Positions 1-52,911 of a stretch of DNA of 64,000 bases are shown here, piece after piece. Under the pieces are notes generated by a model, which was not told the origin of the DNA, searched no databases, and saw only the letters and a list, made by a program, of their open reading frames with translations. The stretch is from Asterias amurensis (lineage: Eukaryota): assembly GCF_032118995.1 (NCBI RefSeq), contig NC_092652.1, forward strand, positions 15,752,336 through 15,816,335, read 5' to 3'. The translations under genes and the position numbers were made by a program. Position 1 is the stretch's first letter, and each line of letters opens with the position of its first letter.

Positions 1-293
1 CATTGTGATAAACGGCTCCCTCTGAAGTAACGTAGTTTTCGAGAAAGAAGTAGTTTTTCACGAATTTGATTTCGAGACCTCAAGTTTAGAACTTGAGGTC
101 CCGAAATTAAGCATCTGAAAGCCATAATTTCGTGGGACAAGGGTGTTTTTTCTTTCATTAGTTATCTCGCAACTCCGACGACCAATTGAGCTCATCTTTT
201 CACAGGTTTGTTATTTTATGCATATGTTGAGATACACAAGTTGTGAGAAGACTGTCTTCTACAATTATCAATAGTGTCCAGTGTCTTTAAAGG
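1..293 (-). mobile_element. MITE family A copy (truncated by window start)
   Basis: matches ~385-bp consensus with ~55-bp TIR aaaggcagtggacactattggtaattactcaaaataattattagcataaaacc and internal gatttcgagacctca...tgaggtctcgaaatc hairpin. Confidence 0.8.
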
Positions 294-487
294 CACTGTA
301 CACTACTGGTTTTATTGTCGAAGACTAGTATTCTCACTTGGTGTATCCCAACAAAACAGTGAAAATTTTAGCTCATTTCGGCCATCGAGATTGCAAGAGA
401 ATGACAAAAGAATAACTTACCTTATTACTTTGTTTGTTTTTAGCTGCACCGTAAAATGCTCCAGCTGAAGTCTTTTATTTTATGAAT

Positions 488-654
488 GAGAGATTACCTC
501 TTTCTCAAAAACTACGTTACTTTTTATAGAGGGAGCCGTTTCACACAATGTTTTATAACTATCATCATCTCTCCATTGCTCTTTACCAAGTAAGTTTTTT
601 TTATGCTAACAATTATTTTGAGTTATATTACCAACTGTGTCAAATGCCTTTAAA
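488..654 (+). mobile_element. MITE family A, 3-prime half copy
   Basis: cagagggagccgtttcacacaatg...ccaagtaag...atgctaacaattattttgag...gcctttaaa. Confidence 0.7.
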
Positions 655-13155: not shown

Positions 13156-13293
13156 TACGGGACCTCTCGAAATCAAGAGAATATTTGCCGCCACTCGTGG
13201 GATTGAAGAGGCTTCATTTGACGGGACCATCGGCAACAACCAACTCCTTTTCCATGGATCAGGACCAGCCACCCTCCTCGGAATTCTCTCAAG
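13156..13293 (+). CDS. PARP4: PARP4-like exon, PARP catalytic domain (H-G-S motif: LLFHGSGPATLLGILSRG)
   Basis: tttggcttgcag| acceptor, aag|gtgtgt donor; classic PARP catalytic NAD-binding H-G-S signature. Confidence 0.8.
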
Positions 13294-13826
13294 GTGTGTA
13301 AATTGAAAGCTTTCAACAAAGTGGGCGGACTTGTGGTGGGATGGGCGGAGGTTATGGATCGGATTTTTACCACTGACTTGATCCCTAAGATTGTCAAGGG
13401 CGAGCAGCTGGGGTTGGGTGGGGCCTGTGATGGAAAGGTGCTCCCCCAGCCCAGACATCCACAAACCACTGTGTTGCAGCATGTTGCAGTAACTGTGTGG
13501 ACATTCCTTTGTTACTAATACTTCACGAAAGTCATGTTCTTCGATTTGGTACAAAAACACTGTGAGGGCGTGTGATTTAGTACACATAGTGTTTCAAGTT
13601 CATCACACAGTAGCCTATTGATGTGGTGCTCGTGCACTGTATAGACTCACCGTGGTCGAATATAGGCGCAGTATTGTCAAGATACCCCACGAAAAATACA
13701 CTCGTAGAGCCCTCGAAAGGAAACCAAATCATGACCTTGCGCTCCTCTCGTGGAAAACAATACATACTAACCCTAACCCCAACTTGAATAATTGATTGCT
13801 ATGTGGACAATAATCTTTAATTTCAG

Positions 13827-13925
13827 GGGTTTGTTGTTACCGAAGATTGTTGTTGAAGAGTATGGCGGTTCTCGGTGTGATGTCGGGTTCCTTGGTTCAG
13901 GCATTTATTTTGCCGGTAGAGCATG
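13827..13925 (+). CDS. PARP4: PARP4-like exon, PARP catalytic (GSGIYFA motif)
   Basis: aatttcag| acceptor; GLLLPKIVVEEYGGSRCDVGFLGSGIYFAGRA; donor tg|gtagg. Confidence 0.8.
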
Positions 13926-14230
13926 GTAGGTTCCTCATATTATGTTCAAAGTTATATTAAATTCTTAAATATTTGAATTTTCAAACGTTTTTTGCTGTTT
14001 GTTGACACGATTGTTAATTTCTCGTGTAAACAAAATATACATTTCGTAGTTTTGCATATTTAAAACGAAAAGCCAAGAAAAAGTTTAACTGATTTTGACA
14101 CTCAATTATGCACAAACCAAAGTACTGTTTTAGTACCCCCAAAAAGGTGCAATAAACTACGCTTACAATTTTACTTTACATTATGTTTCTTATGTATTTA
14201 TTCCAAACATGACCATCTACCATTTTGCAG

Positions 14231-14414
14231 TAAGGCTCAGCAATACTCACCACCTAGTCAGCAAGCCGGTACCAGACTGATGTTTATCCACACGGTTGCC
14301 TTGGGTAACGTCAAGAAGCTATACAACCATGATTATACTCTCAGTGAGGCACCGAAGGGCCACCACAGCACACACGGCGTCAGCAGTTGTTCTGCACACC
14401 CAAGCGCATTTGAG
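14231..14414 (+). CDS. PARP4: PARP4-like exon, PARP catalytic continuation
   Basis: cattttgcag| acceptor, gag|gtagag donor; ...RLMFIHTVALGNVKKLYNHDYTLSEAPKGHHSTHGV... Confidence 0.7.
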
Positions 14415-14582
14415 GTAGAGTTAGCCTTTTTATGAATTATCTTTTTACGCATGCGTACAGACCCTTTTGGTTTACAAACGGTATGTAACTGTGATAAAAT
14501 GTAATGAGGTCAGTTGAACAACATTTCATGATAAATTCTACCCCAACAAGCCACATTTTCTAGGAATACAGCAGTTGCTAAA

Positions 14583-14792
14583 TTATAATTCCTTTAAAGG
14601 AACACGTTGCCTTGGATCGGTCGAGTTGGTCTTTGAAAAGCGTTTGTAACCATTTGTTATAAAATGCATATGGAAAGATGTTGTAAAAGTAGAATACAAT
14701 GATCCACACAAACATGCCTCGAAATTGCACGGTTTTCCTTTTACTTTGTCGACAAACACGGTCGGCCATTTATGGGGACTCCCATAAATGGA
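14583..14792. mobile_element. Foldback element, half copy
   Basis: ttaaaggaacacgttgccttggatcggtcgagttggtc...ggccatttatgggg.cccataaatgg central palindrome. Confidence 0.65.
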
Positions 14793-15103
14793 AAATAACA
14801 AACCTATGAAAATGAGCTCGATTGGTCGTCGAAGTTGTGAGATAATAATGAAAGAAAAACACCCTTGCCACACGAAGTTGTGTGCTCTCTTTCAGATGCT
14901 TGATTTTTTTCGTGAACTCAAAATCTAGTTCTGAAATCAAATTCGTGGAAAAGTACACCTTTCTCGAAAACCCGTTACTTCAGAGGGAGCCGTTTGCTCA
15001 CAGTGGTTTATACTATCAACCTCTCTCCATTGCTCGTTATCAAGTAAGTTGTTATGCTAACAATTTTTTTTGAGTAATTACCAACAGTGTCCATTGCCTT
15101 TAG
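14793..15103 (+). mobile_element. MITE family A, 5-prime-truncated copy abutting a foldback element; 3-prime end forms acceptor of PARP4 exon at 15104
   Basis: ...ccaacagtgtccattgcctttag|GATGACGAG. Confidence 0.8.
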
Positions 15104-15290
15104 GATGACGAGTTTGTTGTATACGAGACGAATCAGCAATGTATCCGCTACCTTGTTGAATTCACCCTGCCAGGAGAAACTGAGGTGGAGATACCTCTCT
15201 GTGAAACTCCTCAGATTGCAGAAGGACCGGAGGAGATGATTCTCTGTAAACAACTCGAGGAGGTTCAAAGTAGTGCTCCAACAGCAATTG
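15104..15290 (+). CDS. PARP4: PARP4-like exon, PARP catalytic C-terminus (DDEFVVYETNQ..YLVEF)
   Basis: acceptor cctttag| formed at 3-prime terminus of MITE-A copy; donor g|gtaatg; DEFVVY..KYLL is PARP catalytic end signature. Confidence 0.75.
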
Positions 15291-15730
15291 GTAATGTGTA
15301 AGACATCAGACAAAAATGTCATAGACTATTCATCAACGTAAACCAGGATTGATTGATCTCGCTGTGCTGTTCTTTCCATGCATTCACAGCACAAATTCAT
15401 TTTGTTTAGATGTTTTTTTTTGTTTTTTTTATGAGAAATGGAAGGCCATTTAAGGCCACTTCTAGGTACAGGTACTGGGTTAAGTCACTATGGTAGCCGC
15501 AGCTACCAACAAATAGTTTTTAATATGCAGCCCCTGGGAACAAAAACCAATGGACCTGCAATGTCAGTTTATCCTGCAATGGGGCATCTGTCAACACCTC
15601 AAGGTTGAATTGGAGACTTTGGCGACCAATTTAGCCTGGGGGTCAGGGAAACTCAGCTGGTTAGTCCGTCAGCGCTTGTATTGGGTGTTGCTGTTGCTAT
15701 GTAACAGAATGCACTTACATGGAAACGTTC

Positions 15731-16015
15731 GTTAAAGACACTCGACACTATTGGTAATTGTCAAAGAACAGTCTTTTCACTTGGTGTATCTCAACATACC
15801 TGTGAAAATTTGAGCTCAATTGGTCGTCGAAGTTGCAAGACAACAATAGAAATTTAAAAAACACCATCGGCCCACGATGGGTGCTTTAAGATGCTTGATT
15901 TCGAGACCACAAAATCTAATTCCGAGGTCTCGAAAACAAATTCGTGGAAAATTACTTCTTTCTCAAAAACGACATCACTCCAGAGGGAGCCGTTTCTCAC
16001 AATATATTATACTAT
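15731..16015 (+). mobile_element. MITE family A copy, 5-prime part (split by LTR retrotransposon insertion)
   Basis: continues at 23094 after the 7078-bp insertion; junction tatactat|LTR. Confidence 0.85.
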
Positions 16016-16962
16016 TGTAACGAAATGGTACCGCGCGGTGGCGCTCCAGGCTTAGCGCGAGAGTAGGCGCCCTTAGCGCGCGAAAAGGCGGTTTGGCGCG
16101 GCGCTGGCTGCCGCGGGGCATTTTGGGAAGCACGCTGCTGCCTCGTGCGTGGGGAGTGCGTAGCGGGCAGTTGCAGACTGGACAGCGGATGGTACAGACG
16201 TGTTTTCAATAGTGGTGTTTAACAATTGGCGGGGAGGATTAAGGCGGCGACGTGACTAGCGTGTTCACGTGTCGGGAGTAGTAGCAGGGCTAGCGTGGGG
16301 AGTTTTGGGAGTTGCGGTGCGTGCTGCTGACAGTTGTGTAACCGAGGGGTAGGTTTCATTGGATTATTTTCTGTGTTATTTATGGCAAGTTGGACGTAGA
16401 GACGTGCGATAATCCACTCCCGTAAGGAGGTCACATTGCATTGTATTGTTTGCTCTGGAGTCCGAGATTCTATCAGGCCCTTAAGGCATATTCTATTGTG
16501 TATTGTATTGGTTGCTCGGAGTTCGGGATTTTATCAGGCCCTAAAGGCAGCTTTGGTTTTACTGTAAATGCAGTTCAGTTACTTTAAGTTAGTTCCAGTT
16601 ACCTTAAGGGATTTTCCAGTTGCTTAAGGGATTACCAGTTACTTAAGGGATTTCGGTGACCTTAAGTTTAGTCAGTTGCCTTAAGGGACCATTTCTGGCC
16701 TTAAGTAAAGGAAGATTGCGTAGTTGGAATCAGGAATTACTGTGCTTTCGTAGGGATAATAAATAAAACGGATCAATAGTCAATCAGTAACTTGTCTCAG
16801 CCCTCACTCCTTGGAAGTCAACAGTTTCTTACAGTTTCTAGACCCCTTCCCCCACGTTTTTATTACATGCGGCGATATACGGTTGCCTAACGACCTCACC
16901 CCAAGTGCCAGCAGGACTACCGCTCGTCCTGTGCTGGTGACCACCAGACGGGAATCGCTACA
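16016..16962 (+). repeat. 5-prime LTR (947 bp)
   Basis: identical to 22147-23093 except about 3 substitutions (near 16062, 16364, 16573); contains tandem 20-bp CCTTAAGGGAT-type subrepeats. Confidence 0.9.
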
Positions 16963-16980
16963 TTGGTGTCAGAAGTGGGA
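16963..16980 (+). other. Putative primer binding site (TTGGTGTCAGAAGTGGGA)
   Basis: begins TGG immediately 3-prime of the 5-prime LTR. Confidence 0.4.
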
Positions 16981-17035
16981 TTTGCTGTAATTTTTGTGGG
17001 AGACAGGGTTATTCTAGAGCTGTATAACGGACTGC

Positions 17036-18292
17036 ATGATGGACCGGATGGATTCAAGGGCAATGGAGGAGGAGTTGGAGGTGCTTCGGATGGAGGTTCA
17101 TACAGCCGAAAATATAGTCGAGGATGCTGTCGAGGCCAGGCGGGTAATGGAGGAGGAGTTGCGCAGGATGCGTATGCAACACGCAGAGATGGAAGAGAGA
17201 CATAAGTCGGGCAGGGTCCTTGGAGCCCCTACGCCAGACATGTTTTTCAGCACTCCGAGTCCTGTGGTTTCCGGTACACTTAGGGACACCTCAGGAGCAG
17301 GATTCACACCTGCAAACACAGTTGCAGACACAGAATTCACAAGAGAACAGGAGGTGGGACGTAAGGAGGATGCGACTACTACCAGCCCCAAGGTGGACAG
17401 ACCTCGAAAACCGAACATTTGCCCGGATCGTTTCAATGGGAAGGTTCCTTGGAATGACTACAAGGCTCATTTCCGAGCTTGCTGCGTGGCGAATGCCTGG
17501 AGTGACGAGCAGGCGGTCGTGTTTCTCGCTGCCAGCCTCCAAGGGCAAGCGTTAAAGGTGCTGAGATGCCAGCCGGAGGGGAAGAAGTCGTCGCTTAAGG
17601 ACTTGATGCTCCGTCTGGACCAGAGATTTGGCCCGGGCCAACAAGCAGATTTCCATATGATGGAGGTGAGGCACCGTCGGCAGGGCGAAGTGGAAACACT
17701 GCAGGAGCTAGGGACGAGCATAAGGGAGCTATCTGCATTGGCCTACCCGGAATTCTCCGACGATAGCCGGGAACGGTTGGCTAAGGGACATTTCATGGAT
17801 GCGGTCAAGGACCGGGAGATTAGGGAAGGGATATTCCGGGTAAGCCCAACCTCTTTAGATGACGCCATTAGGGCCGCTCTGCAGACAGAAAGTTTCCTTC
17901 GGACAGAGGAACATAGGACCAATGGGAGGGGGAGAAAGTTTGCAAGGGTTGTTGCAGGAGGAGAGGACGAGGTCTCTCTGCAGGGTCTACAAGGAGAGTT
18001 AAGGGCCACTCAGGATCGCATGTCTAAGGCTTTGGGTGGAATACATGCCATGTTGGAGGACCTGTCACGTTCTAAGGGGGATTACCAGTCGGCAGTTCCA
18101 CGGGGAAGGTCAAGTGCAGACTATGCCTGTTACAACTGTGGCAAAAAGGGTCACTTCGCGAGGGAATGTTCTGAGCCGAGAAGGGAAAGGAGCTGGCAGT
18201 CGGGAAACGCTACCCAGCCAACCGTGGGGCCCAATGGAAGGCTGGAAATGGAGGAAGGACACAAAGAAACTTCCAAGGAGGGCCAGTGCTAG
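17036..18292 (+). CDS. gag: Gag polyprotein (418 aa) with capsid-like region and CCHC zinc knuckle
   Basis: ORF track; CYNCGKKGHFARECSE zinc knuckle; retrotransposon-gag-like FNGKVPWNDYKAHFRACCVANAWSDEQ; N-terminal Glu/Arg-rich coiled-coil-like stretch. Confidence 0.85.
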   Translation: MMDRMDSRAMEEELEVLRMEVHTAENIVEDAVEARRVMEEELRRMRMQHAEMEERHKSGRVLGAPTPDMFFSTPSPVVSGTLRDTSGAGFTPANTVADTEFTREQEVGRKEDATTTSPKVDRPRKPNICPDRFNGKVPWNDYKAHFRACCVANAWSDEQAVVFLAASLQGQALKVLRCQPEGKKSSLKDLMLRLDQRFGPGQQADFHMMEVRHRRQGEVETLQELGTSIRELSALAYPEFSDDSRERLAKGHFMDAVKDREIREGIFRVSPTSLDDAIRAALQTESFLRTEEHRTNGRGRKFARVVAGGEDEVSLQGLQGELRATQDRMSKALGGIHAMLEDLSRSKGDYQSAVPRGRSSADYACYNCGKKGHFARECSEPRRERSWQSGNATQPTVGPNGRLEMEEGHKETSKEGQC

Positions 18293-20484
18293 GAATGTAT
18301 AACCAAGGGATAACGCTCTCAGGGAAGAGTTCGAATATGGCAGGGCTATATGTGACCGCTCAGGTACGAGGAGTAAAAACACAGATGTTAATCGACACAG
18401 GTGCGTCAAACACGGTGCTGTCAGCAGCAGTTTACTATCAAATGGCTCCGGAGGGGAGACCTTCACTGAATACGAGGGGAGCGAAGTTGTACGGGGCGGA
18501 TGGTAGCTCCATAGAGACTATTGGCGGAGCATTGATGGAGATCCAGGTTGGCAAGACAACCCTCCCGGTACATGTGATATTTGCAAAATTGGATTTGGAG
18601 GGGATATTAGGAATGGACTTTCTCCTGCCTACAAATGGACGACTGGACTTCAAGGACATGGTGTTGACCCTGAATGGAGAACGAATAAGGTGCCAGAACG
18701 GTCAGGGTGCGAACGTTTGTGCACAGTGTGGAATGGAAGGACCGGACCTGGGTGGCCAGTTGCGCAAGTCAGGAGGAAGTGAAGGGATAGTGCCTGTACC
18801 GGATAGCGATGAAGGAGATAGTGGCCCTGCAGGAAAGGCTGAGGAAGCCAAAGCTGATTTGCGCGCCGTGGGTGTACTACCCCAAATAACCAAGGCCGAC
18901 TGGAGGGAGGCACAGCTTAGGGAAAGCTCTATGGAGTGGGTCATCAAGGCTAAGGAGGCCGAGGTACCCAGGCCAGACTGGGAGACAGTGTCAGTAACAT
19001 CCAGTGCAAGCAAGAACTATTGGCTACGATGGGAGCAGCTACTTGTTCGCGACGGCGTACTACAGCGTCGGTGGGAGTCTCACAATGGAAAGCAAACGCA
19101 GTGGCAAACCTTGGTACCTCAGGAGCTCCGAGGAGAGATATTGCATGAGCTCCACGCAGGAAGGCTGAGTGGACACTTAGGAACCAAGCGAACAATGGCG
19201 AAGGTGCACGGCAAGTTCTATTGGCAAGGGATGGCTGCAGACATAAGGTCCTTCATCCGAGAGTGTGATGTGTGTGCTAGGAGGAAGTCCCCCAACAAAA
19301 AGAGAAGGGCCCCTTTACAGCAACACCTAGTGGGAATTCCGATGGAGCGAGTAGCGATGGACATTACAGGACCCTTCCCAGTGACGAAGAATGGCAATCG
19401 TTACATACTTGTGATTGGGGACTACTTCAGTAAGTGGTTCGAAGCCTACCCCATTCCAGATGAGAAGGCAGAGACTGTTGCGGACAAGTTCGTCAAGGAG
19501 TTCGTGTGCAGGTTCGGCGTGCCTAAAACACTGCATACCGACCAAGGGAGAAATTTCGAGTCGAGGCTCATGGCCGAGGTGTGCAGAACGCTTGGGATTG
19601 AAAAGACCAGGACCACCCCCTACAACCCCAAGTCTGACGGAATGGTTGAGAGGTTTAACCGCACCCTGGTTAATATCGTAGCCATGCTGATGAAAGAACA
19701 AGCAAACAATAAGGACTGGGACGAGGAGTTGCCTTATGCGACGGCTGCTTACCGCAGCACACCACAAGAGTCCACTGGGGAAACCCCAAACATGCTGATG
19801 CTCGGTAGGGAAGTCTCTCTGCCCCTTGATTTGACAGTGGAGGAGCCCCCTGCAGGCGACGCAGATGGGAAGGAGGAGCGGGACTATGCCCAAGTGGTGC
19901 GTGAGAGAATGCAGGGCGCACATGAAAGGGCTAGAGCACGCTCGAAGAAAAGTGCAAGACGTCAGAAACAAAACTATGACAAGGGGACCAGCGAGGGCAA
20001 CTTTGCTGAAGGCACGTTCGCCTGGTTGTTCAACCCAGCGAAGAAGAAGGGGGTGTCACCCAAGTTGATGTGTAGGTGGGAAGGACCCTACCTTGTAGTA
20101 AACAGGCTGTCGGACGTAACCTTAAGGATACAAAGGAAGCCTGGAGGGAAAACGAAGGTTGTTCACTGTGACCGCCTTAAGCCGTATCAAGGTGCACCCT
20201 TACAGCCTTGGATGTCAGATGCAGACGAAGGGACGCAGGCCCTGCAGGGGCAACCCGCAGGAGATATCCCGGTGGATGATGCATCCCAGGTGGAAGTGAT
20301 TAATAGCCCGATGCCAGCGGGCCAGGTAGAACCAGAGACACCTGAAGGTGACCGGGAATCCTCTGAAGATATGGGCCATGCGGATCCTGCTCAGGTATCT
20401 AGACCCTTAGACATGACACCGTTGCCTGCACAGGCGAGACGGAATCCGTTGCGCCAGCGGAGGCCGCCACAGCGGTATCTGTAA
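18286..20484 (+). CDS. pol: Pol (732 aa) = aspartic protease + integrase only; no reverse transcriptase/RNase H
   Basis: -1 frame relative to gag with 7-nt overlap; LIDTGASNTV and GILGMDFL protease motifs; H-x3-H...C-x2-C zinc finger (HELHAGRLSGH...CDVCARRK); integrase D (VAMDITGPFP), D (LHTDQGRNFES), E (MVERFNRTL); GPY/F tail (WEGPYLVVNRL); no YxDD motif anywhere. Confidence 0.85.
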   Translation: MLGMYNQGITLSGKSSNMAGLYVTAQVRGVKTQMLIDTGASNTVLSAAVYYQMAPEGRPSLNTRGAKLYGADGSSIETIGGALMEIQVGKTTLPVHVIFAKLDLEGILGMDFLLPTNGRLDFKDMVLTLNGERIRCQNGQGANVCAQCGMEGPDLGGQLRKSGGSEGIVPVPDSDEGDSGPAGKAEEAKADLRAVGVLPQITKADWREAQLRESSMEWVIKAKEAEVPRPDWETVSVTSSASKNYWLRWEQLLVRDGVLQRRWESHNGKQTQWQTLVPQELRGEILHELHAGRLSGHLGTKRTMAKVHGKFYWQGMAADIRSFIRECDVCARRKSPNKKRRAPLQQHLVGIPMERVAMDITGPFPVTKNGNRYILVIGDYFSKWFEAYPIPDEKAETVADKFVKEFVCRFGVPKTLHTDQGRNFESRLMAEVCRTLGIEKTRTTPYNPKSDGMVERFNRTLVNIVAMLMKEQANNKDWDEELPYATAAYRSTPQESTGETPNMLMLGREVSLPLDLTVEEPPAGDADGKEERDYAQVVRERMQGAHERARARSKKSARRQKQNYDKGTSEGNFAEGTFAWLFNPAKKKGVSPKLMCRWEGPYLVVNRLSDVTLRIQRKPGGKTKVVHCDRLKPYQGAPLQPWMSDADEGTQALQGQPAGDIPVDDASQVEVINSPMPAGQVEPETPEGDRESSEDMGHADPAQVSRPLDMTPLPAQARRNPLRQRRPPQRYL

Positions 20485-20631
20485 TTAATTAGCTCTGGAG
20501 TATTGGGGGGATCGATTGTATGGTACTAGGACAACAAAGGCGTAACGTAGGAGTAGCAAACCAGTATGGGGGTAACTGCAGTGAAGTAACTGTTGCTTTG
20601 TTTGTTCTTTTTCTTTACAGTATAAAGGAGG

Positions 20632-21651
20632 ATGGAGGACCAAGAGCCAGGATGGAAGAGACCGAAGGACTGGGATAAGATGAAGCTATACGCATGTTCG
20701 GAGTGTGACGACACCTTCGTGAGCAAGAAGAGTCTTGAGACCCATCTGGGGACTCACACCACCAAGAAGAAGATCCTGTACTTCTGCAAGAGGTGTGACA
20801 GGAGATATACAAGGAAAGACAACCTGAAGGTTCACTATACCAACCACCACCCTGCAGGGATGCAGGACCTGGATACGCTGTACCCAGAAACGGAGGAAGA
20901 ACGGAGAGCTGCTAGTTCCCCAGGAGACGATGTGGATGTTCCGGGTGATTCCCCTGCCCCCTCGGGACGCAAGAGGAAGGAAACGGAGGTGACCAATCCC
21001 AGACCCAGAAAGGAGTCCAGGAAGAGGAGAGAGTGCACCGAGAAAACCAGGGAGCCACAGAAGGAAGAGGAATCGGCTGAGGAGACGCAGCTCCCCTCAA
21101 CTCCTGGGAGGAACCGGGTGATACAGGAAACGGCGGAACTGTCCTTGTCGCCAGCGTCAGTTTCCTTACTGGAAGAGGCGGGTCCTCGGCGCCGGGTAGT
21201 CCATGGAGGGAAACCTCGGGGTATGATTTCGATGATGAAGGATGCCCAGGAAGAGGGTACTGACGAGGAAGGAGTGGAGGACAACAACGACGCTCCTTTG
21301 TCCATTAATCTGGGGCGAGCACTAAAGGGAAGCACCCTACGATACAACGAAGGAGACCTGCAACAACACGTCTTTCAACCAGCTCAGGGTGTTCGACACG
21401 GGCTGGGACAAGCCGCACCGGTAGAGGAACCACCACAGGCGAGAGTGTGCCGGATCAATCGAGGCAACCCGGGGTGGCGAAAAGCAGTGCCACTTGATAC
21501 TGCTGACCTGGAGGTGATGATGGCTGGAAACGTCCGTAAGGTGAGAGAAGTCAACACAAGAAGCCAGTTTCAGAATGGCCTCAAGATCTCCGAAGAGGTC
21601 GTCGAGCGGACATACGACGTGCAGTTCACGGCAGGGTTTATCCTCAAGTAG
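20632..21651 (+). CDS. ORF3 (339 aa) C2H2 zinc-finger protein in env position of the LTR element
   Basis: two C2H2 fingers (YACSECDDTFVSKKSLETHLGTH; YFCKRCDRRYTRKDNLKVHYTNHH), then acidic/Ser-Pro-rich low complexity and a C-terminal ~100 aa unique region; intact ORF. Confidence 0.7.
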   Translation: MEDQEPGWKRPKDWDKMKLYACSECDDTFVSKKSLETHLGTHTTKKKILYFCKRCDRRYTRKDNLKVHYTNHHPAGMQDLDTLYPETEEERRAASSPGDDVDVPGDSPAPSGRKRKETEVTNPRPRKESRKRRECTEKTREPQKEEESAEETQLPSTPGRNRVIQETAELSLSPASVSLLEEAGPRRRVVHGGKPRGMISMMKDAQEEGTDEEGVEDNNDAPLSINLGRALKGSTLRYNEGDLQQHVFQPAQGVRHGLGQAAPVEEPPQARVCRINRGNPGWRKAVPLDTADLEVMMAGNVRKVREVNTRSQFQNGLKISEEVVERTYDVQFTAGFILK

Positions 21652-22134
21652 TTGTAGTCCACTTTAGGCTCGTTTTTACTAAAGCGTTACTTGTTTATAA
21701 CCTTGTTTTCTTTCAGTATAAAAGTTGTCTAAGAGAGTATATTTTGATAACAGATCTTGCCTTTGTAATCTTGTGTAATTCCCTTAAGGATTAGGTTACG
21801 AATTTGGATTGTATAACGTGATTGTGTTATGATTGGATTTGATTTGTATAAACTCCCTTAAGGAGACATTGTGATTTTTGAAATGTGTTTTACTTAAAGT
21901 TCCCTTTAGGAGCATTAGCAGACTCTTGCCTTAAAGTGTGTAAACCTCCCTTAAGGAGGCATTGTGATAACTTATTGTTTAAGCTCCCTTAAGGGGCCCC
22001 TTTGTTACTTAAAGGTGTCCGGCAGGTGCATTGTGGTGTATAAAATAACTATTTCTCTGTATAAATTTGTAAGCACCTTGAGGTACATTTCGTTTTTAGG
22101 GTATCAGTTTTACGGACCGGGTGGTCCTAACTTA

Positions 22135-22146
22135 AGTGGGGGGCTG
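22135..22146 (+). other. Putative polypurine tract (AAGTGGGGGGCT)
   Basis: purine-rich run directly upstream of 3-prime LTR. Confidence 0.45.
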
Positions 22147-23093
22147 TGTAACGAAATGGTACCGCGCGGTGGCGCTCCAGGCTTAGCGCGAGGGTAGGCG
22201 CCCTTAGCGCGCGAAAAGGCGGTTTGGCGCGGCGCTGGCTGCCGCGGGGCATTTTGGGAAGCACGCTGCTGCCTCGTGCGTGGGGAGTGCGTAGCGGGCA
22301 GTTGCAGACTGGACAGCGGATGGTACAGACGTGTTTTCAATAGTGGTGTTTAACAATTGGCGGGGAGGATTAAGGCGGCGACGTGACTAGCGTGTTCACG
22401 TGTCGGGAGTAGTAGCAGGGCTAGCGTGGGGAGTTTTGGGAGTTGCGGTGCGTGCTGCTGACAGTTGTGTAACCGAGGGGTAGGTTTTATTGGATTATTT
22501 TCTGTGTTATTTATGGCAAGTTGGACGTAGAGACGTGCGATAATCCACTCCCGTAAGGAGGTCACATTGCATTGTATTGTTTGCTCTGGAGTCCGAGATT
22601 CTATCAGGCCCTTAAGGCATATTCTATTGTGTATTGTATTGGTTGCTCGGAGTTCGGGATTTTATCAGGCCCTAAAGGCAGCTTTGGTTTTACTGTAAAT
22701 GCGGTTCAGTTACTTTAAGTTAGTTCCAGTTACCTTAAGGGATTTTCCAGTTGCTTAAGGGATTACCAGTTACTTAAGGGATTTCGGTGACCTTAAGTTT
22801 AGTCAGTTGCCTTAAGGGACCATTTCTGGCCTTAAGTAAAGGAAGATTGCGTAGTTGGAATCAGGAATTACTGTGCTTTCGTAGGGATAATAAATAAAAC
22901 GGATCAATAGTCAATCAGTAACTTGTCTCAGCCCTCACTCCTTGGAAGTCAACAGTTTCTTACAGTTTCTAGACCCCTTCCCCCACGTTTTTATTACATG
23001 CGGCGATATACGGTTGCCTAACGACCTCACCCCAAGTGCCAGCAGGACTACCGCTCGTCCTGTGCTGGTGACCACCAGACGGGAATCGCTACA
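22147..23093 (+). repeat. 3-prime LTR (947 bp)
   Basis: direct repeat of 16016-16962, starts TGTAACG ends GCTACA. Confidence 0.9.
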
Positions 23094-23193
23094 CTATTAA
23101 CAGTTCCCCGTTACTCATTACCAAGCAAGGTTTTATGCTAACACTTATTTTGAGTAGTTAATACTGATAATTTCACTGTCCACTGCCTTTAAA
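23094..23193 (+). mobile_element. MITE family A copy, 3-prime part (after LTR element)
   Basis: ctattaacagttccccgttactcattaccaagcaaggttttatgctaacacttattttgagtag...cactgcctttaaa. Confidence 0.85.
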
Positions 23194-23199
23194 CACCAG

Positions 23200-23336
23200 A
23201 TCTCAGTGATGTAGAATATGCAAAAGATCCCGTAGTAGACGTTGAAATCGGCCTCGTCAGTCAAAATGAAATATCAGACTCAATCACCCTACAAGCTGTA
23301 CACGTCAGAGCAAAACTACTGGATCTAGTGGCTGAG
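23200..23336 (+). CDS. PARP4: PARP4-like exon (start of VIT domain region)
   Basis: acceptor aaacaccag| 6 bp after MITE-A end; phase 1 matches exon ending 15290; donor gag|gtaagg. Confidence 0.6.
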
Positions 23337-23716
23337 GTAAGGTAGCATTCATAAAGGTATCAACTAATAGTTATCAACTAAGAGGTGTCTATCTATAAAC
23401 TAACATTAACAAGCTGAGGCATAACCATCAACTAAATCAACGGTGTCAGTGAAAGACCATAAGATATTGGCCAATCAGTATCAACTAAATATTACTGTTA
23501 CTGTTTCGTTTATTAACACACAATACAATAAACGACATAATTTGATGGGCTCTGTGAAATTGAGTCACATAGGGCGTATACGTTCGGTTTTTAACACATG
23601 CCTTAATATACCAAACTCATTTGAATCATACTTTAATCACATTTTCCATAATGTTTTTTTTTTTTAATGATCATAACATACTGTTTTGATGTGACTGTCA
23701 TTGTTCAATCAACCAG

Positions 23717-23935
23717 GTAGTGGTCTTGCAGTCGTATCGTAACAATAGTGACGAAACCATGGAAGCCAAGTACGTATTTCCACTAGACCAATCAGCGGCA
23801 GTTTGTGGATTTGAGGCTTTCATCAATGATAAACATGTAGTTGGTGTCGTGATGGAAAATGAAATAGCTCATAGGGAGTATCGCCAAGCAGTGGAGGCTG
23901 GGCACGGAGCTTATCTTATGGACGAAGAATTTCCT
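23717..23935 (+). CDS. PARP4: PARP4-like exon, VIT domain (YVFPLDQSAAVCGFEAFINDK...GAYLMDEEFP)
   Basis: aaccag| acceptor, cct|gtaagt donor; strong VIT-domain motifs (FPLD..AV.GFEAFI..K..VG.V.E...A...Y..A...G.GAYL). Confidence 0.8.
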
Positions 23936-24479
23936 GTAAGTTACTTGTTTATCATACTATGACAATAACTGGTTTGCTCCGTATCCGTTACATTATAACT
24001 GTTTTCATTTTTACTTTCACTAATTATTTTCTTGATCTATCCTTGACCGTCTTTGAATTAAAGAAATTGTACTTCATGTGTTTATTATTCTCCTTTTTTG
24101 ACCAAGAAGAAAAGAAATGTTCAAATATTAATAATAACAATAATAACAATGATATAAATATGGGGGCTTATAATCCTTTGCAGCTAAAATTCAGTTATGC
24201 TACAACATTATCAGGCTGCACTGGAAAGTGCCTATATGGCAGTCTTACACCATAAGCACAGACAGAGGTTTGAGTTTTTCTTGAAAAACACTCATGGCAT
24301 AGGAGAGAACCATTGCATAAATATACATTGATACCTCACCATGCAATGCCTCAACAAGCAAACATTGGCTAAGCGACGAGTAAAAACCTTGTTTTTGACA
24401 GTGTCTTTTTGTTTGTCATGATGTGTAGAACAAAATGGTAACAAAGTTAACACTGTTTTCATGTTCTGTAATGTTTAAG

Positions 24480-24688
24480 CATGTGTTCTCGGTCAGCGTC
24501 GGCAATCTTCCCCCACAAGCTGATGTTCTCATCAAAGTGACGTATGTGACAGAACTTGCCGTGGAGGGCGACAGACTTGCTTTTAATCTTCTCGGTACGG
24601 TTGCACCATGGAAACGCCAAGAGGTTCTTGCTAAAGGAACACCCTCAGAGCGAGATGTTGTCGATGTTGAACTGGAAACAGTTTACAA
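24480..24688 (+). CDS. PARP4: PARP4-like exon, VIT domain (VGNLPPQADVLIKVTYVTEL)
   Basis: atgtttaag| acceptor, aa|gtaagt donor; VIT core motif NVGNL.P......Y. Confidence 0.8.
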
Positions 24689-24835
24689 GTAAGTTTTAGT
24701 TTGTCCGTTATGCTAGCGAAATTAAATATCATTATGATAAATTTACACTTTTTTGTCCATTTCTCCTTAACATAACCAAACAATATAGTGCCGTTCTTAT
24801 AACACGAGTTGTATTTGATGTGTTTGTTATCACAG

Positions 24836-24917
24836 GGAGCAGTCGATTCAAGTTGCAGTTTCTATGGCGTCTAAGATCACAAGTATCGAGTCAACTACAC
24901 ATTCTATTCTTGTTAAA
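24836..24917 (+). CDS. PARP4: PARP4-like exon, VIT C-terminal part
   Basis: ttatcacag| acceptor, aaa|gtaagc donor, phase 2-0 consistent. Confidence 0.65.
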
Positions 24918-24924
24918 GTAAGCC

Positions 24925-25330
24925 ATGGATTCTTACCCACACAAAATTCGAAAAGGCGGTAACAAAAAGGATACAGGATTCCCGGTGGGATTCTGGCACG
25001 ATTCCGCCAGGAATCCCGCCGTTTTGCGGGATTCTGGCATGATAACTTGCGAGAGAATTGGATGAATTTTTCGGGAGTCGGGATTTTGGTAGGGTTCCAG
25101 CTTGATTTTTGCGGGATCCTGAAGAGATTTTCATGGAATCCCGGTTAATCCAACTGGAACCCTGGTTAATCCAATCGAAATTCCGGTTGGTTCCGGCAAA
25201 ATCTCGGTTATTCCGACTGGAATCCCGGTAAAGCCCAGTTATCTAATCAACCGGAATCCCGGTTGATCCAACTGGAATCCCAGTTTATCCTATCAAAATC
25301 CCGGACAGTATCGTCGGAATCTTGTTTAAT
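24925..25330. repeat. Satellite-like degenerate tandem repeat (AATCCCGGTTRATCCAACTGG family)
   Basis: many ggaatcccggttaatccaactgg variants; same family as 33250-34110. Confidence 0.7.
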
Positions 25331-25682
25331 CCGTGTGTTTGTGTTTTAATCCCAAATAAAGGTAGACATCTACAACAAACTACCTTTCCTACACTTGAGA
25401 GGTAATTCTATCTGAGCGTTGAAAATTTGACACACTAAAAGCACACCCGGTGTTTGACCATTACGTTAGACTACAGGACACCTATTTTGGTTCCTGTTGT
25501 TCCTGTATTGAAGCAATCCCTATTGGAATGGTTTTGTACACAAATGACTAGTGAGGACCCATGAAAACAATGAACCGACTAGTGAGGACCTATTGTCCCT
25601 ATTGAAAAGTGTCCTCAGAGGGTAGGCCATACAAACACATTTCTTAAAGGTGATGTTTTTGATGTTTGGATTTCTTTCTCAG

Positions 25683-25820
25683 CAATCGGATAATAAGGCA
25701 TCCATCAAGCTCGGCAAAGACTCCAAACTCGATGAAGGGTTTCAGCTGTTGATTGGTATAGAGGAGATTCACAAGCCAAGAGTATGGATAGAGGATCCCA
25801 AAACAGGATCTGAAGACCAA
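25683..25820 (+). CDS. PARP4: PARP4-like exon (VIT-VWA linker)
   Basis: tttctttctcag| acceptor, caa|gtaaca donor; QSDNKASIKLGKDSKLDEGFQLLIGIEEIH. Confidence 0.55.
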
Positions 25821-26600
25821 GTAACACAGAATTTGACTGCTTGTTTTGTTTGTATCGTTTTGCTTTGTAGTTTGTTGTGTATTTTGTGAAGTTGTTTGCT
25901 TTGTGTTTTACTAACTGTATGTGAGTTTGTTTTTTATTAAACTTCATCGAAGTACTTCAACCAAAGACATATTTTGAACCAAATGTCCATGGATTGTAAT
26001 AATGTTTTTTAAACTTTTTTACATATCTATAGTATACAATTTAAACACGTTTTCCTTACAACAAAATTTTATGTTGTATTTTCTTTTGGTTTTCAGATAC
26101 ATTTTTCTTTGAATTTCAGAGGGATGTATGTAACAGGAAAAATAGTTCTAGATGAACCGGTCAATTAAAACTAGTTTCTGTGTGTATCTTTTTTTTTTAA
26201 ACGGGCACTTTTTAAGGGGCTTGTACTAGGAGGTATGATCAAATTGTCTGTGTGTTTACATAGAAAAGAAAAAACATTAATATATGACATTTTATTCTGT
26301 TATTTCTTTTTAAATAGAGTTTAGAATCTAGAGATCTCCGGAATTCAGATTGGGTTTCACCTGGGAGCTTAAGTATATTGGAGGGTTTCCTTTTAAAATG
26401 AATTTTGTTTACACAGCAGCTGCGATAAGAGAATATCGGGACATGAACATGTTTTGTGATTTGTTGCGACTGGGGTCACAAAGTTGAAAGGTTCTTAATT
26501 TGTTTTTGGTTAAATTTATGCGGTACAGTTTTATTTCAATAAACGAGATTTTCTTTTAATTTGTTTTCTTTGCAACAAATAGGCCGTCTATCTACGACAG

Positions 26601-26787
26601 GCCGCCATGCTGGTATTTTATCCTGAACTGGATGTGAGTAACTTAGCTAATCCAGAGATGGTCCTTGTGATGGATTCATCAAACTCCATGAAGGGAAGCA
26701 GTCTTGAAGAGGCCAAGAAGTTACTGCTTCTTATTGTGCAGAATCTTCCTTCAAGTTGTACCTTCAATGTGGTAGTCTTCGGTACAG
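26601..26787 (+). CDS. PARP4: PARP4-like exon, VWA domain start (MIDAS motif VLVMDSSNSM)
   Basis: tctacgacag| acceptor, cag|gtagct donor; AAMLVFYPEL...VMDSSNSMKGSSLEEAKK...FNVVVFGT. Confidence 0.8.
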
Positions 26788-27388
26788 GTAGCTAGGCCTT
26801 TATGCATCTATGGTTGCAGCTTTCACACACGGAAACCATGGGATTTTAAATCTCTAGCTAATGCTTCAAAGCTATTTTTGAAGATTCACTGTTTTTAGCA
26901 TACTTCATATTGATTTAAAATCAACAGGGGTACTTCAGAAGAAAAGGTTTCGCAGAATGCTTACTATCAATATCATCTTTAGCCCACCGATTGTTTATCG
27001 AAATTTAATAGAAAGTTGTATGGAATTACTGTTTTTCTGTCAAGAGGTATTTTTTTTATAAAATGTCAATATCATGGACTATTGAGATATTTTCTATAGA
27101 ACAAAACAAATTCTCAGAAAATTTAAGAGATTTACGTCGAAACTTTTGTAAAAAGGTCTACGGACTTCTTAAAAAAAATTCTACTAACTATAGAATGTAA
27201 ATGTTATGGAAGTTTTGAACAGTGATATACTCTAAAATATTCTATATACATTACAAAATATAGGCCTATAGAAACACACATTATTTTCTTTTAGTGGCCC
27301 CTCTTTTCTGTTGAATTTCTTAACAATTTATATTTCTAAATAATTGATCCACTACAAGTTATTTTAAGTCATAATTTTATTAGTCATT

Positions 27389-50900: not shown

Positions 50901-51772
50901 AGATTTCAGGAGCAAAATATTTACCCTTATATAAACATAATTGTTCAGTGAATAACAAAACGTTGTATGGAAGATGAAGTGTTATTATTTGTTTTACCTT
51001 TTTTTGGGGAAACGCTCTGTAAACGACTAGTCTTATCTCGAGTTAGGACGGGTTAGTCGCTCTAACTTAGGACTAGCCTTAAGTTTTTAATATCTCCTAG
51101 GACTAGTCCTAAGTTAGGACTAGGAAGTTAGGACTAGTCCCAACTCTTTGTAAAATCGACCCATTCGTTAATCGCTGCAATAAATAAGAAATACAAAATA
51201 CCCAGTAATTTTTCTTATAAAACTAAAACCACACTTAACGTTTTAAATTGCTCGTAAAATACTGTTGTGTTTTTAGAGCTGTTAGAGGGCGCAATGATGT
51301 TTTGCTTTTGTTTTAAACGGTAATCACCTCTTTTAAAAATGGAGTGTACCCAAAACGGGATTGCGTGATACCTCCTTCCGCCTCGATCCGCTGTTGGCAA
51401 TTAGCTGACGTTTGCCCCAATTCGGCCACCAAAAAAACATCAGTCTATATGTTACACATCTGGCAACTGCGCATTGTTGAACCAATAAGCCTTTCTGTAG
51501 TTACACTTTTTTCATACATTATGCAGTCACAACAAACAACAGACAAACACAAAAATAGAGGACACACTTGGAAACTGTCTGAATTGTCATGCCTGAATCT
51601 AAAATGAATAAAGTCCTGAGATAAATTAGAGACGGTATCATGATGTTGTCACATTGTTCGGCGGTAGTTCCTTCATTGGTACTTGCTGTCCACAGACTCG
51701 AATAAAACATTTAATAAAAAGTAGTTCAAATAGCAGCTTTTGCCAATTCGGACGTTTCTAAACTTAAAGGCA

Positions 51773-52148
51773 GTGGACACTATTGGTAATTGTCAAAGAC
51801 TAGCCTTCACAGTTGGTGTATCTCAACATATGCATAAAATAACAAACCTGTGAAGATTTGAGCTCAATCGGTCATCGAAGTTGCGAGATAATAATGAAAG
51901 ACAAAAGACCCTTGTCACACGAAGTTGTGTGCGTTTAGATGGTTGATTTCGAGACCTCAAGTTCTAAATCTGAGGTCTCGAAATCGAATTCGTGGAAAAT
52001 TACTTCTTTCTCGAAAACTATGGCACTTCAGAGGGAGCCGTTTCTCACAATGTTTTATACCATCAACCTCTCCCATTACTCGCACCAAGAAAGGTTTTAT
52101 GCCGATAATTATTTTGAGTAATTACCAATAGTGTCCACTGCCTTTAAA
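51773..52148 (+). mobile_element. MITE family A full copy
   Basis: both TIRs. Confidence 0.85.
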
Positions 52149-52529
52149 CCAAAGGACAGTTTGGATTGACCAAACATGTGTTTACCTCTTATACTTGCAA
52201 AAGCAAGTTGGTGTCATATTAATCTGGTTCTATCGTGTATGTGTAGTAATGTAAATGTAAACCTTTCGTTGCCAAAGGGTCACGGCCATGGTGTTATAAA
52301 ACTGCAAAGTGACGTCCTATTCGTGATGAAATGTCCGCTCTATACATGGCATAGAAGAGTACGCCCTCTTATGAGAACTCTTGGCATAAGTCTCATTTGG
52401 GCGAGTGAGGTGTGTTTAAAACCAGATATTATCAAAGATTCGGACACGAATGGGTCGAAGCATTCAAGGAACCTGTCTATAGGTCAAAACAACGTTTAAC
52501 AGGTCAAGTCATCAGTTTGACCTTAATGT

Positions 52530-52911
52530 TAAAGGCAGTGGTCACTATTGGTAATTACTCGAAATAATTATTAGCATAAAACCTCACTTGGTATCGAGTA
52601 ATGGGGAGAGGTTAATAGTATACAACATTCTGAGAAATGGCTCCCTCTGAAGTAACGTAGTTTTCAAGAAAGAAGTAATTTTCAACGAATTTGATTTTAA
52701 GACCTCAGAATTAGATTTTGAGGTCTCGAAATCAAGCATCTGAAAGCACACAATTTCGTGTGACAATGGTGTTTTTTCTTTCATATCTCGAAACTTCGAC
52801 GATCAATTGAGCTCAAATGATCACAGGTTTGTTATTTTATGCATATGTTGAGATACACCAAGTGAGAAGATTGGTCTTTGACACGTGCCAATAGTGTCCA
52901 GTGTCTTTAAG
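52530..52911 (-). mobile_element. MITE family A full copy
   Basis: both TIRs. Confidence 0.85.

Follow-up and report, generated by a model that had tools for sequence, protein, structure and literature searches.

Introduction

Several kinds of transposable element bear comparison with the locus described here. BARE2 of barley is a non-autonomous LTR retrotransposon derivative that has retained coding sequence and is without functional gag, and the non-autonomous LARD and TRIM elements have no protein-coding capacity. LTR elements that lie in introns in the sense orientation of the host gene are usually under-represented, because of transcript effects such as premature termination and splicing into the element. 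For LTR elements with gag, protease and integrase that lack a reverse transcriptase (RT), and for surveys of sea-star transposons, the literature searched yielded general work on non-autonomous LTR elements and nothing on the family described below.

Here we analyze an intron of a PARP4-like gene in a stretch of 64,000 nucleotides from Asterias amurensis (hereafter the window). We consider it highly probable that three events are layered in this single intron: the insertion of a MITE, the insertion of an LTR element into that MITE, and the deletion of RT and RNase H from the LTR element.

Results

Nested insertion in a PARP4-like intron

The host gene lies on the + strand and encodes a PARP4-like protein with PARP, VIT and VWA domains in this order. 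PARP4 homologues served to map its collinear exons from position 13166 to 26792, and the concatenated exon translation matches PARP (1.1e-24), VIT (8e-32) and VWA_3 (1.2e-06); homologues of the protein carry the name PARP4. The interrupted intron (15291–23199, now 7.9 kb) has the last exon of the catalytic domain upstream and the exon in which VIT starts downstream (Table 1), and joining 15290 to 23200 preserves the reading frame (...SSAPTAI-D-LSDVEY). The original prediction, made from the sequence alone, had placed an LTR element inside a MITE, inside the PARP4 intron that separates the catalytic and VIT domains, in sense orientation. The position in the intron agrees with the exon mapping and the domain matches, and the sense orientation with the + strand location of both the host exons and the ORFs of the element.

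The MITE family is about 375–380 bp in length, contains no ORF and is present in at least 12 copies in the 64 kb. All aligned copies have TTAA on both ends and no further duplication outside it; the end sequence is AGGCAGTGGACACTATTGGTAATT. An intact copy (51764–52147) has perfect terminal inverted repeats of 28 nt, TTAA included, and in the interrupted copy these repeats are degenerate. The TTAA alone suggests a piggyBac-like MITE. The predicted limits of the interrupted copy (15731–23193) agree within one base with its terminal TTAA sequences. As the next host exon starts at 23200, after ACACCAG (23193–23199), five bases lie between the terminal TTAA and the AG acceptor; the original prediction had put the end of the MITE remnant only 6 bp before the acceptor. 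The branch-point and pyrimidine-tract region of the intron is MITE-derived.

The element inserted in the MITE is an LTR retrotransposon of 7.1 kb, in the sense orientation of the host gene. Its two LTRs (947 bp each, TG...CA) differ by three mismatches, all of them transitions (99.68% identity), and it is flanked by a CTAT target-site duplication (16012–16015 and 23094–23097) at the point where the MITE is split, as the original prediction had it. We rebuilt the empty site by joining 15700–16015 to 23098–23230, that is, by removing the element and one CTAT, which restores a MITE of roughly 375 bp. Eleven other MITE copies within the 64-kb window cross the rebuilt site uninterrupted (69–82% identity). 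The multiple alignment sets the rebuilt junction, ttat-actattaacag, beside a family consensus of ttat-actatcaacct and needs neither a gap nor an additional base to do so; an uninterrupted allele is predicted to read ...CACAATATATTATACTATTAACAGTTCCCC.... The probability that a 4-bp flank match alone arises by chance is 1/256; the duplication combined with the exact restoration of a repeat-family sequence is not a chance pattern. The nesting, the duplication and the possibility of reconstructing the empty site were all part of the prediction; the flanks were inspected for a failure to align to the MITE family and for a missing 4-bp duplication, and they align, with CTAT in place. Exact-pattern scans of metagenome contigs with the rebuilt empty site gave no match, and the only related contig (L011) ends before it reaches the PARP4 intron.

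Structure of the LTR element

The features of the locus are listed in Table 1. The 19-nt primer match was made with the human tRNA-Leu(CAA) sequence (PMC10359600); tRNA genes were sought in the window and in three related sequences (L001, L006 and L007) and none was found. The window contains neither another copy of the element nor a solo LTR, and an Rfam scan of the whole window returned no match. The pol product contains an aspartic protease (aa 23–113), an integrase H2C2 domain (277–335), an rve core (352–448) and an integrase C-terminal domain (600–633).

Table 1. Coordinates of host, MITE and LTR-element features in the window.
Feature	Position	Strand	Remarks
Host exon, C-terminal end of PARP catalytic domain (DDEFVVYETNQQCIRYLVEF...)	15104–15290	+	donor G/GTAATG
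TTAA, MITE 5' end	15732–15735		taken to be the target-site duplication of the MITE itself; from aligned copies
MITE 5' part	15736–16015	+	degenerate terminal inverted repeat AGACACTCGACAC...; ends in first CTAT copy
5' LTR, 947 bp, TG...CA	16016–16962	+	tandem array of 19–20 bp with CTTAAG cores 16576–16652; AATAAA 16758
Primer-binding site TGGTGTCAGAAGTGGGATT	16964–16982	+	19 nt complementary to 3' end of tRNA-Leu(CAA)
gag ORF, 418 aa	17036–18292	+	CCHC zinc knuckle (zf-CCHC 3.7e-07)
GGGAAAC heptamer, candidate -1 frameshift site	18202–18208	+	gag/pol overlap; register G GGA AAC in gag frame
Truncated pol ORF, 732 aa	18286–20484	+	without RT and RNase H in domain search
In-frame deletion junction TGTGCACAGTGTG	18717–18729	+	microhomology TGTKC
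Pyrimidine tract and CAG, acceptor-like	20600–20620	+	11 nt upstream of ORF3 start codon
ORF3, 339 aa	20632–21651	+	two N-terminal C2H2 zinc fingers; conserved C-terminal block of ~55 aa
3' untranslated region	21652–22133	+	5 CTTAAG motifs vs 0.27 expected
Polypurine tract AAGTGGGGGG	22134–22143	+	3 nt upstream of 3' LTR; read from sequence
3' LTR, 947 bp	22147–23093	+	AATAAA 22889
MITE 3' part	23094–23188	+	starts with second CTAT; ends in terminal inverted repeat ...GTCCACTGCCT
TTAA, MITE 3' end	23189–23192		from aligned copies
Next host exon, linker; VIT begins near 23289	23200–23337	+	acceptor AG 23198–23199

The element has the LTRs, the 4-bp duplication, the primer-binding site and polypurine tract and the gag zinc knuckle of Ty3/gypsy elements; the order PR-RT-RH-IN is lacking, as only protease and integrase are present. 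RT homology was found nowhere in the window. As two relatives (L006 and L007) have the full autonomous order PR-RT-RH-IN, protease and integrase without RT and RNase H identify the present copy as a deletion derivative and not as an autonomous member, a point that the original prediction had missed. As the LTRs differ at 3 positions in 947 bp, the insertion appears to be recent, probably well under a few million years old at typical animal substitution rates.

Possible effect on PARP4 transcripts

When the element was scanned, sense-strand AATAAA was confined to the LTRs (16758 and 22889), and a single strong sense acceptor was found, with an exon start at 20621. Splicing of 15290 to 20621 reads GTA TAA and terminates after a single codon, and read-through of the donor, read from the sequence, gives a stop after GNV. 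Given that AATAAA is limited to the LTRs and that one acceptor is strong, truncation or alteration of PARP4 transcripts by the insertion is plausible. Most likely, the element would for the most part be removed with the 7.9-kb intron during splicing; a minority may terminate at an LTR AATAAA or be spliced to the ORF3 acceptor, and on either of these routes the frame would run into a stop no more than three codons past the exon of the catalytic domain.

The same signals would be expected if the sense insertion disrupted PARP4 substantially, with most transcripts ending in the 5' LTR or spliced to the ORF3 acceptor and the part of the protein with VIT, VWA and vault binding partly or fully lost: both AATAAA motifs are in the sense direction, the acceptor yields an immediate stop, and so in effect does the unspliced donor. 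However, the flanking exons, the splice sites and the reading frame are intact, and many intronic LTR insertions are tolerated; we regard so strong an effect as possible but unlikely, and favor removal of the element with the intron as the main route.

In-frame deletion of RT and RNase H

The element has lost about 1.7 kb by an in-frame deletion that took out RT and RNase H. To the left of the junction (GTTTGTGCACAGTGTGGAATGG) the sequence continues the post-protease sequence of L008, a member of the same family that is 93–94% identical; to the right it matches the C-terminal end of RNase H in the relative L002, and the two sides share TGTKC. A microhomology junction of this kind is what template switching in the course of reverse transcription would be expected to leave. 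The deletion junction was also sought as an exact pattern in metagenome contigs, without a match. The gag, protease, integrase and ORF3 frames are still open in the present copy.

The best database match is an element of Patiria miniata (L001), which lacks RT as well and is 60% identical in protein sequence. Its two LTRs, 720 bp in length, are identical, ATAC is duplicated at its target site, and its primer-binding site is that of the window element. It lies beside a DUF1907 gene and is itself annotated as a host locus, LOC119729953. The breakpoints of its deletion differ from those in the window on both sides: the Patiria element retains HRAGESHQNADSLSHRP and has HRAG...SHRP, absent from the window element, and the latter has GQGANVCA, absent in Patiria. 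L008 keeps the segment from post-protease to early RT that the window element misses. Relatives in marine metagenome contigs also differ in their internal deletions, L003 and L008 having further ones of their own, and related contigs carry multiple rearranged copies. Since the internal deletions differ and an RT-bearing relative with ORF3 exists, RT loss is recurrent in this family and not the property of one ancient lineage; as a copy that is 93–94% identical keeps the segment, the deletion in the window is younger than the divergence of very close copies.

If, instead, one old RT-less lineage with gag, protease, integrase and ORF3 had lived as a parasite of autonomous elements in several echinoderms, an RT-less relative with identical LTRs at 60% protein identity would be expected, as found in Patiria, and so would selection on all retained frames. 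Compared with Patiria, ORF3, gag and pol indeed have far fewer non-synonymous than synonymous differences (pN 0.24–0.35, pS 0.74–0.81). Purifying selection can, however, have acted inside RT-bearing elements, and the unlike breakpoints and the segment kept in L008 led us to rule out an ancient RT-less lineage shared with Patiria; an old lineage of any such kind is very unlikely.

An assembly error that mimics the nesting, such as a repeat wrongly joined into the intron by collapse or chimerism, is still less probable. Misassembly is common at LTR elements and MITEs, and a single assembly was seen; direct support for an artefact is lacking. Against it, the junctions are base-exact on both sides, with a 4-bp duplication and the MITE sequence perfectly restored, the primer-binding site and polypurine tract are in their correct places, and the three LTR differences show that the LTRs are not one collapsed copy. 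Finally, although the frames are open and conserved and the Patiria copy carries a gene annotation at NCBI, it is scarcely credible that gag-protease-integrase and ORF3 are domesticated host genes, as both copies have identical or near-identical LTRs, duplications, a primer-binding site and a polypurine tract, they occupy unrelated loci (a PARP4 intron and a site beside DUF1907), and related contigs carry rearranged copies in number. Recurrent deletion from RT-bearing elements is the reading that we retain.

ORF3 and CTTAAG motifs

Homologues of ORF3 were found in the sea stars Patiria miniata and Asterias amurensis as well as in marine metagenome contigs; the contig location of the Asterias amurensis homologue was sought and not found. 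The RT-bearing L006 has a distant ORF3 homologue, and the Patiria element carries an equivalent of the pyrimidine-tract acceptor before ORF3. A description of a C2H2 accessory ORF in gypsy elements was not found in the literature searched.

The window and Patiria elements, L005 and L008 show strong enrichment of CTTAAG, and the ORF3 fingers may have CCTTAAGG-containing DNA or RNA as a candidate target. A link between ORF3 and CTTAAG was considered and set aside: L007 has three copies without ORF3 and L006 a distant ORF3 without an array, so there is no clean correlation, and we keep the link as a low-probability lead only. It is a speculative and rather improbable proposal that these elements form an undescribed echinoderm Ty3/gypsy clade in which a conserved two-finger C2H2 gene, expressed from a spliced subgenomic RNA, would encode a nucleic-acid-binding factor acting perhaps at the CTTAAG arrays that dominate the LTR and 3' untranslated region, with RT-less in-frame derivatives that retain gag, protease, integrase and this gene made repeatedly and propagated as parasites of full-length elements.

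Discussion

The order of events at the locus can be proposed as follows. A non-autonomous DNA transposon with TTAA duplications and 24-nt inverted ends would have inserted at a TTAA near the 3' splice site. Much later, a Ty3/gypsy cDNA, primed from tRNA-Leu(CAA), would have integrated into this MITE, duplicating CTAT. The integrated copy presumably arrived with the ~1.7-kb RT/RNase H segment missing, in frame and with a TGTKC joint. Either the template was a full-length RNA and the segment dropped out during the same round of replication, or the template RNA already had the deletion and an autonomous relative would have provided RT in trans.

The insertion is datable, reconstructable and in sense orientation, and lies between the catalytic and the vault-associated halves of PARP4; if polymorphic, it would be a natural test of how well an intron tolerates a 7-kb LTR element with poly(A) signals. 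It also provides a nucleotide-resolved, in-frame RT/RNase H deletion at a microhomology, in a family in which ORF3 is conserved. Nesting of this kind is routine in animal genomes and current understanding is unchanged; the novelty is limited to a nested insertion of a known sort and a newly seen member of an element family.

Compared with piggyBac-type MITEs, the outer insertion has TTAA on both sides, perfect inverted ends in the intact copy, a length of about 380 bp and no ORF, but its inverted ends (AGGCAGTGGACAC...) are without the initial CCC that is typical of piggyBac. The inner insertion resembles the Ty3/gypsy elements of echinoderms and marine invertebrates (Metaviridae; 'K02A2.6-like', 'gypsy integrase') in its LTRs, 4-bp duplication, primer site, polypurine tract and CCHC gag, and in its protease and integrase domains (H2C2, rve, p58_C). 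Unlike these, the present copy is without RT and RNase H, and its family has a C2H2 ORF3 downstream of pol. In its place downstream of pol, its acceptor-like tract and the purifying selection on it, ORF3 is like the env of errantiviruses and the tat/rev-type regulators of complex retroviruses; its product is, however, a C2H2 zinc-finger protein, with no Pfam match to envelope-type families. The element shares with LARD and TRIM that it is LTR-bounded and non-autonomous, but with three long ORFs (418, 732 and 339 aa, with Pfam domains) it belongs to neither. BARE2 is likewise an LTR element with partial coding capacity that needs a partner to move again; what BARE2 lacks is a functional gag, and what the present copy lacks is RT and RNase H. 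The deletion may stem from the copy's own replication cycle.

Structure of the nested insertion

All the hallmarks of an integrated LTR retroelement are present in the 7.1-kb element: two 947-bp direct repeats (16016–16962 and 22147–23093) that start with TG and end with CA, a duplicated CTAT (16012–16015, 5′ of the first LTR, and 23094–23097, 3′ of the second), a primer-binding site TGGTGTCAGAAGTGGGATT one base past the 5′ LTR, and a purine run AAGTGGGGGG three bases upstream of the 3′ LTR. The primer-binding site is complementary to the 19 nt at the 3′ end of tRNA-Leu(CAA), for which the human sequence was used (PMC10359600). The LTRs differ at three positions, all transitions (K = 0.0032), suggesting an insertion age of roughly 0.16–1.6 million years at assumed rates of 1e-9 to 1e-8 substitutions/site/year, from which the true rate of the lineage may differ.

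To rebuild the empty site, the element was excised together with one copy of CTAT, so that the left flank (ending at 16015) met the right flank (starting at 23098). This yields a MITE of approximately 375 bp that aligns to its family with zero gaps and zero additional bases, and the junction point is crossed uninterrupted by 11 other copies in the window (69–82% identity). The coordinates and junction sequences of the original prediction are thus right, and the nested insertion is real and was correctly interpreted. Nested transposon insertion is an ordinary kind of event; our analysis adds to this structure that the element lost reverse transcriptase (RT) and RNase H (RH) by an in-frame deletion, with a junction resolved to the base, and that its family has a conserved zinc-finger ORF3.

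An intact MITE copy (51764–52147) has perfect inverted ends of 28 nt, TTAAAGGCAGTGGACACTATTGGTAATT, and all aligned copies have TTAA on both sides with no outer duplication beyond it, so the family appears to behave as a TTAA-targeting, piggyBac-like element. At least 12 copies are present in the 64 kb, some as closely spaced inverted pairs (2–290, minus strand, with 284–623, plus strand; 51764–52149, plus, with 52552–52910, minus), which could form long hairpins in pre-mRNA.

Features of the host gene, the LTR element and its relatives (window positions unless a locus is named; L001, Patiria miniata locus; L003, L005 and L006, loci with relatives of the element)
Feature	Position	Strand	Basis or remarks
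PARP4 exons	13166–13294, 13819–13914, 14226–14414	+	homologue mapping
PARP4 exon, end of PARP domain	15104–15290	+	homologue mapping, Pfam
TTAA of interrupted MITE	15732–15735 and 23189–23192		
LTR tandem array, 19–20-bp units	16576–16652, repeated 22707–22783		CAGTTACTTAAGGGATTAC
CTTAAG-rich regions	16480–16700, 21783–22131, 22611–22831; L001 14846–15358		
gag ORF	17036–18292	+	418 aa, CCHC knuckle (Pfam)
GGGAAAC heptamer	18202–18208	+	gag/pol overlap; G GGA AAC, register right for −1 frameshifting
pol ORF	18286–20484	+	732 aa; aspartic protease aa 23–113 (Pfam)
pol ORF, integrase parts	H2C2 aa 277–335, rve 352–448, C-terminal domain 600–633		Pfam
ORF3	20632–21651	+	339 aa, two C2H2 zinc fingers (Pfam)
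ORF3 homologues	L001 13782–14825; L003 1223–2362; L005 36–1031; L006 10809–11894		
PARP4 exon, start of VIT domain	23200–23337	+	homologue mapping, Pfam
PARP4 exons	23717–23937, 24483–24635	+	homologue mapping
PARP4 exons	25674–25817, 26592–26792	+	homologue mapping
P. miniata RT-less LTR element	L001 9220–16093		GCA_015706575.1

The host gene and consequences of the insertion

The exons mapped with PARP4 homologues are collinear, and their concatenated translation matches PARP (1.1e-24), VIT (8e-32) and VWA_3 (1.2e-06) in Pfam, the domain combination of PARP4. As predicted, the insertion lies in the intron between the catalytic and VIT exons and, since host exons and element ORFs are all on the plus strand, in sense orientation. 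Splicing of 15290 to 23200 keeps the frame (...SSAPTAI-D-LSDVEY). The intron (15291–23199) measures 7,909 bp; it would shrink to approximately 827 bp if the LTR element were absent, and to approximately 450 bp if the MITE were missing too.

The acceptor of the preceding PARP4 exon (15102–15103) coincides with the end of a second copy of the same MITE (14797–15103), which has the same orientation; the family terminus ...CCTTTAA reads ...CCTTTAG/GATGAC there, with AG in place of the AA that would close the TTAA. With MITE copies ending at or near both acceptors, the 3′ splice-site region is MITE-derived in two consecutive PARP4 introns. In a closely related genome, represented by an ENA marine metagenome contig (L011 1–1200, 93.5% identical to window 23699–23960), the same MITE family is found 36 nt upstream of the VIT exon acceptor; this copy contains a nested non-LTR retrotransposon fragment (weak RVT_1 match), so nested insertion into this MITE near PARP4 acceptors is not unique to the window.

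On the sense strand, AATAAA is found in the two LTRs only (16758 and 22889). The sole acceptor with a strong pyrimidine tract would start an exon at 20621, 11 nt upstream of the ORF3 ATG. Splicing from 15290 to this site would read GTA TAA, stopping after one codon, and read-through of the donor would add GNV before a stop; any aberrant transcript would thus retain the catalytic coding sequence but lose VIT, VWA and downstream regions. The exons and splice sites flanking the insertion are intact. Our best estimate is that most PARP4 transcripts splice normally, and substantial impairment of the allele seems unlikely.

Coding content of the element

No RT or RNase H was detected in the pol ORF with Pfam, and no RT homology was found anywhere in the 64-kb window. 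Judged by the order protease-RT-RH-integrase in relatives with a complete pol, the family is Ty3/gypsy. Matches to the element point to an echinoderm source: the closest named ones come from two sea stars, P. miniata and Asterias amurensis, and from Strongylocentrotus purpuratus, and coastal marine metagenomes contain fragments that are 93–94% identical.

ORF3 lies downstream of pol in every case. Members of its protein family share two C2H2 fingers, three short motifs (W.(R/K)PKDWD, LSLSPxSxSL and GGKP(R/K)GM) and a conserved C-terminal block that closes with ERTY.V.FTAGF.L; apart from the fingers, the protein could not be assigned to any family. In the window and Patiria elements alike, no hexamer is more frequent than CTTAAG in the LTR and 3′ untranslated region: the window element has 7 copies in the 947-bp LTR and 5 in 495 bp of untranslated region, where approximately 0.3 are expected, and the Patiria element has 9 in 548 bp. 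Among the relatives, CTTAAG arrays and ORF3 did not consistently occur together.

Recurrent loss of reverse transcriptase

At the junction, a marine metagenome contig 93–94% identical to the window element (L008) has the sequence ...GCGAACGTTTGTGCGCGTGTGATTGTAGAG (GANVCARVIVEE), from which it runs on into early RT. The window element reads ...GCGAACGTTTGTGCACAGTGTGGAATGG (GANVCAQCGMEG), and its right half matches the C-terminal end of RNase H in a related element (L002; CCATGTTCACAGTGCGGGATGG, giving RRPCSQCGMGE). Together, these matches point to the in-frame removal of approximately 570 codons between two sites sharing TGTKC. Such a TGTKC-flanked deletion would be the expected trace of template switching during reverse transcription.

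The best database match, P. miniata LOC119729953, is a gag-protease-integrase fusion of 1,216 aa that also lacks RT. Annotated as a host gene, this protein is in fact encoded by the gag-protease-integrase ORF of an LTR element without RT. This element has LTRs of 720 bp that are 100% identical, an ATAC target duplication and the same tRNA-Leu(CAA) primer-binding site, so the locus is a very recent transposon insertion and not a host gene; an ORF3 homologue is present.

A single ancient RT-less lineage could be rejected, as the deletions differ among the elements: the Patiria junction lacks GQGANVCA and keeps HRAGESHQNADSLSHRP, and L003 and L008 have two further, different deletions. With L006 combining an RT-bearing element and a distant ORF3 homologue, these distinct junctions argue for recurrent RT loss within the ORF3-bearing clade.

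Comparison with the Patiria element

Between the window and Patiria elements, synonymous sites are saturated (pS 0.74–0.81) and pN is far lower (0.24–0.35) in gag, protease-integrase and ORF3, indicating that purifying selection has acted on all three. In the window element, the gag and pol frames overlap by 118 nt, and the GGGAAAC heptamer is a candidate −1 frameshift site. The window element has a −1 frame change between gag and pol, whereas its Patiria relative has a single uninterrupted gag-protease-integrase ORF (L001 10001–13651).
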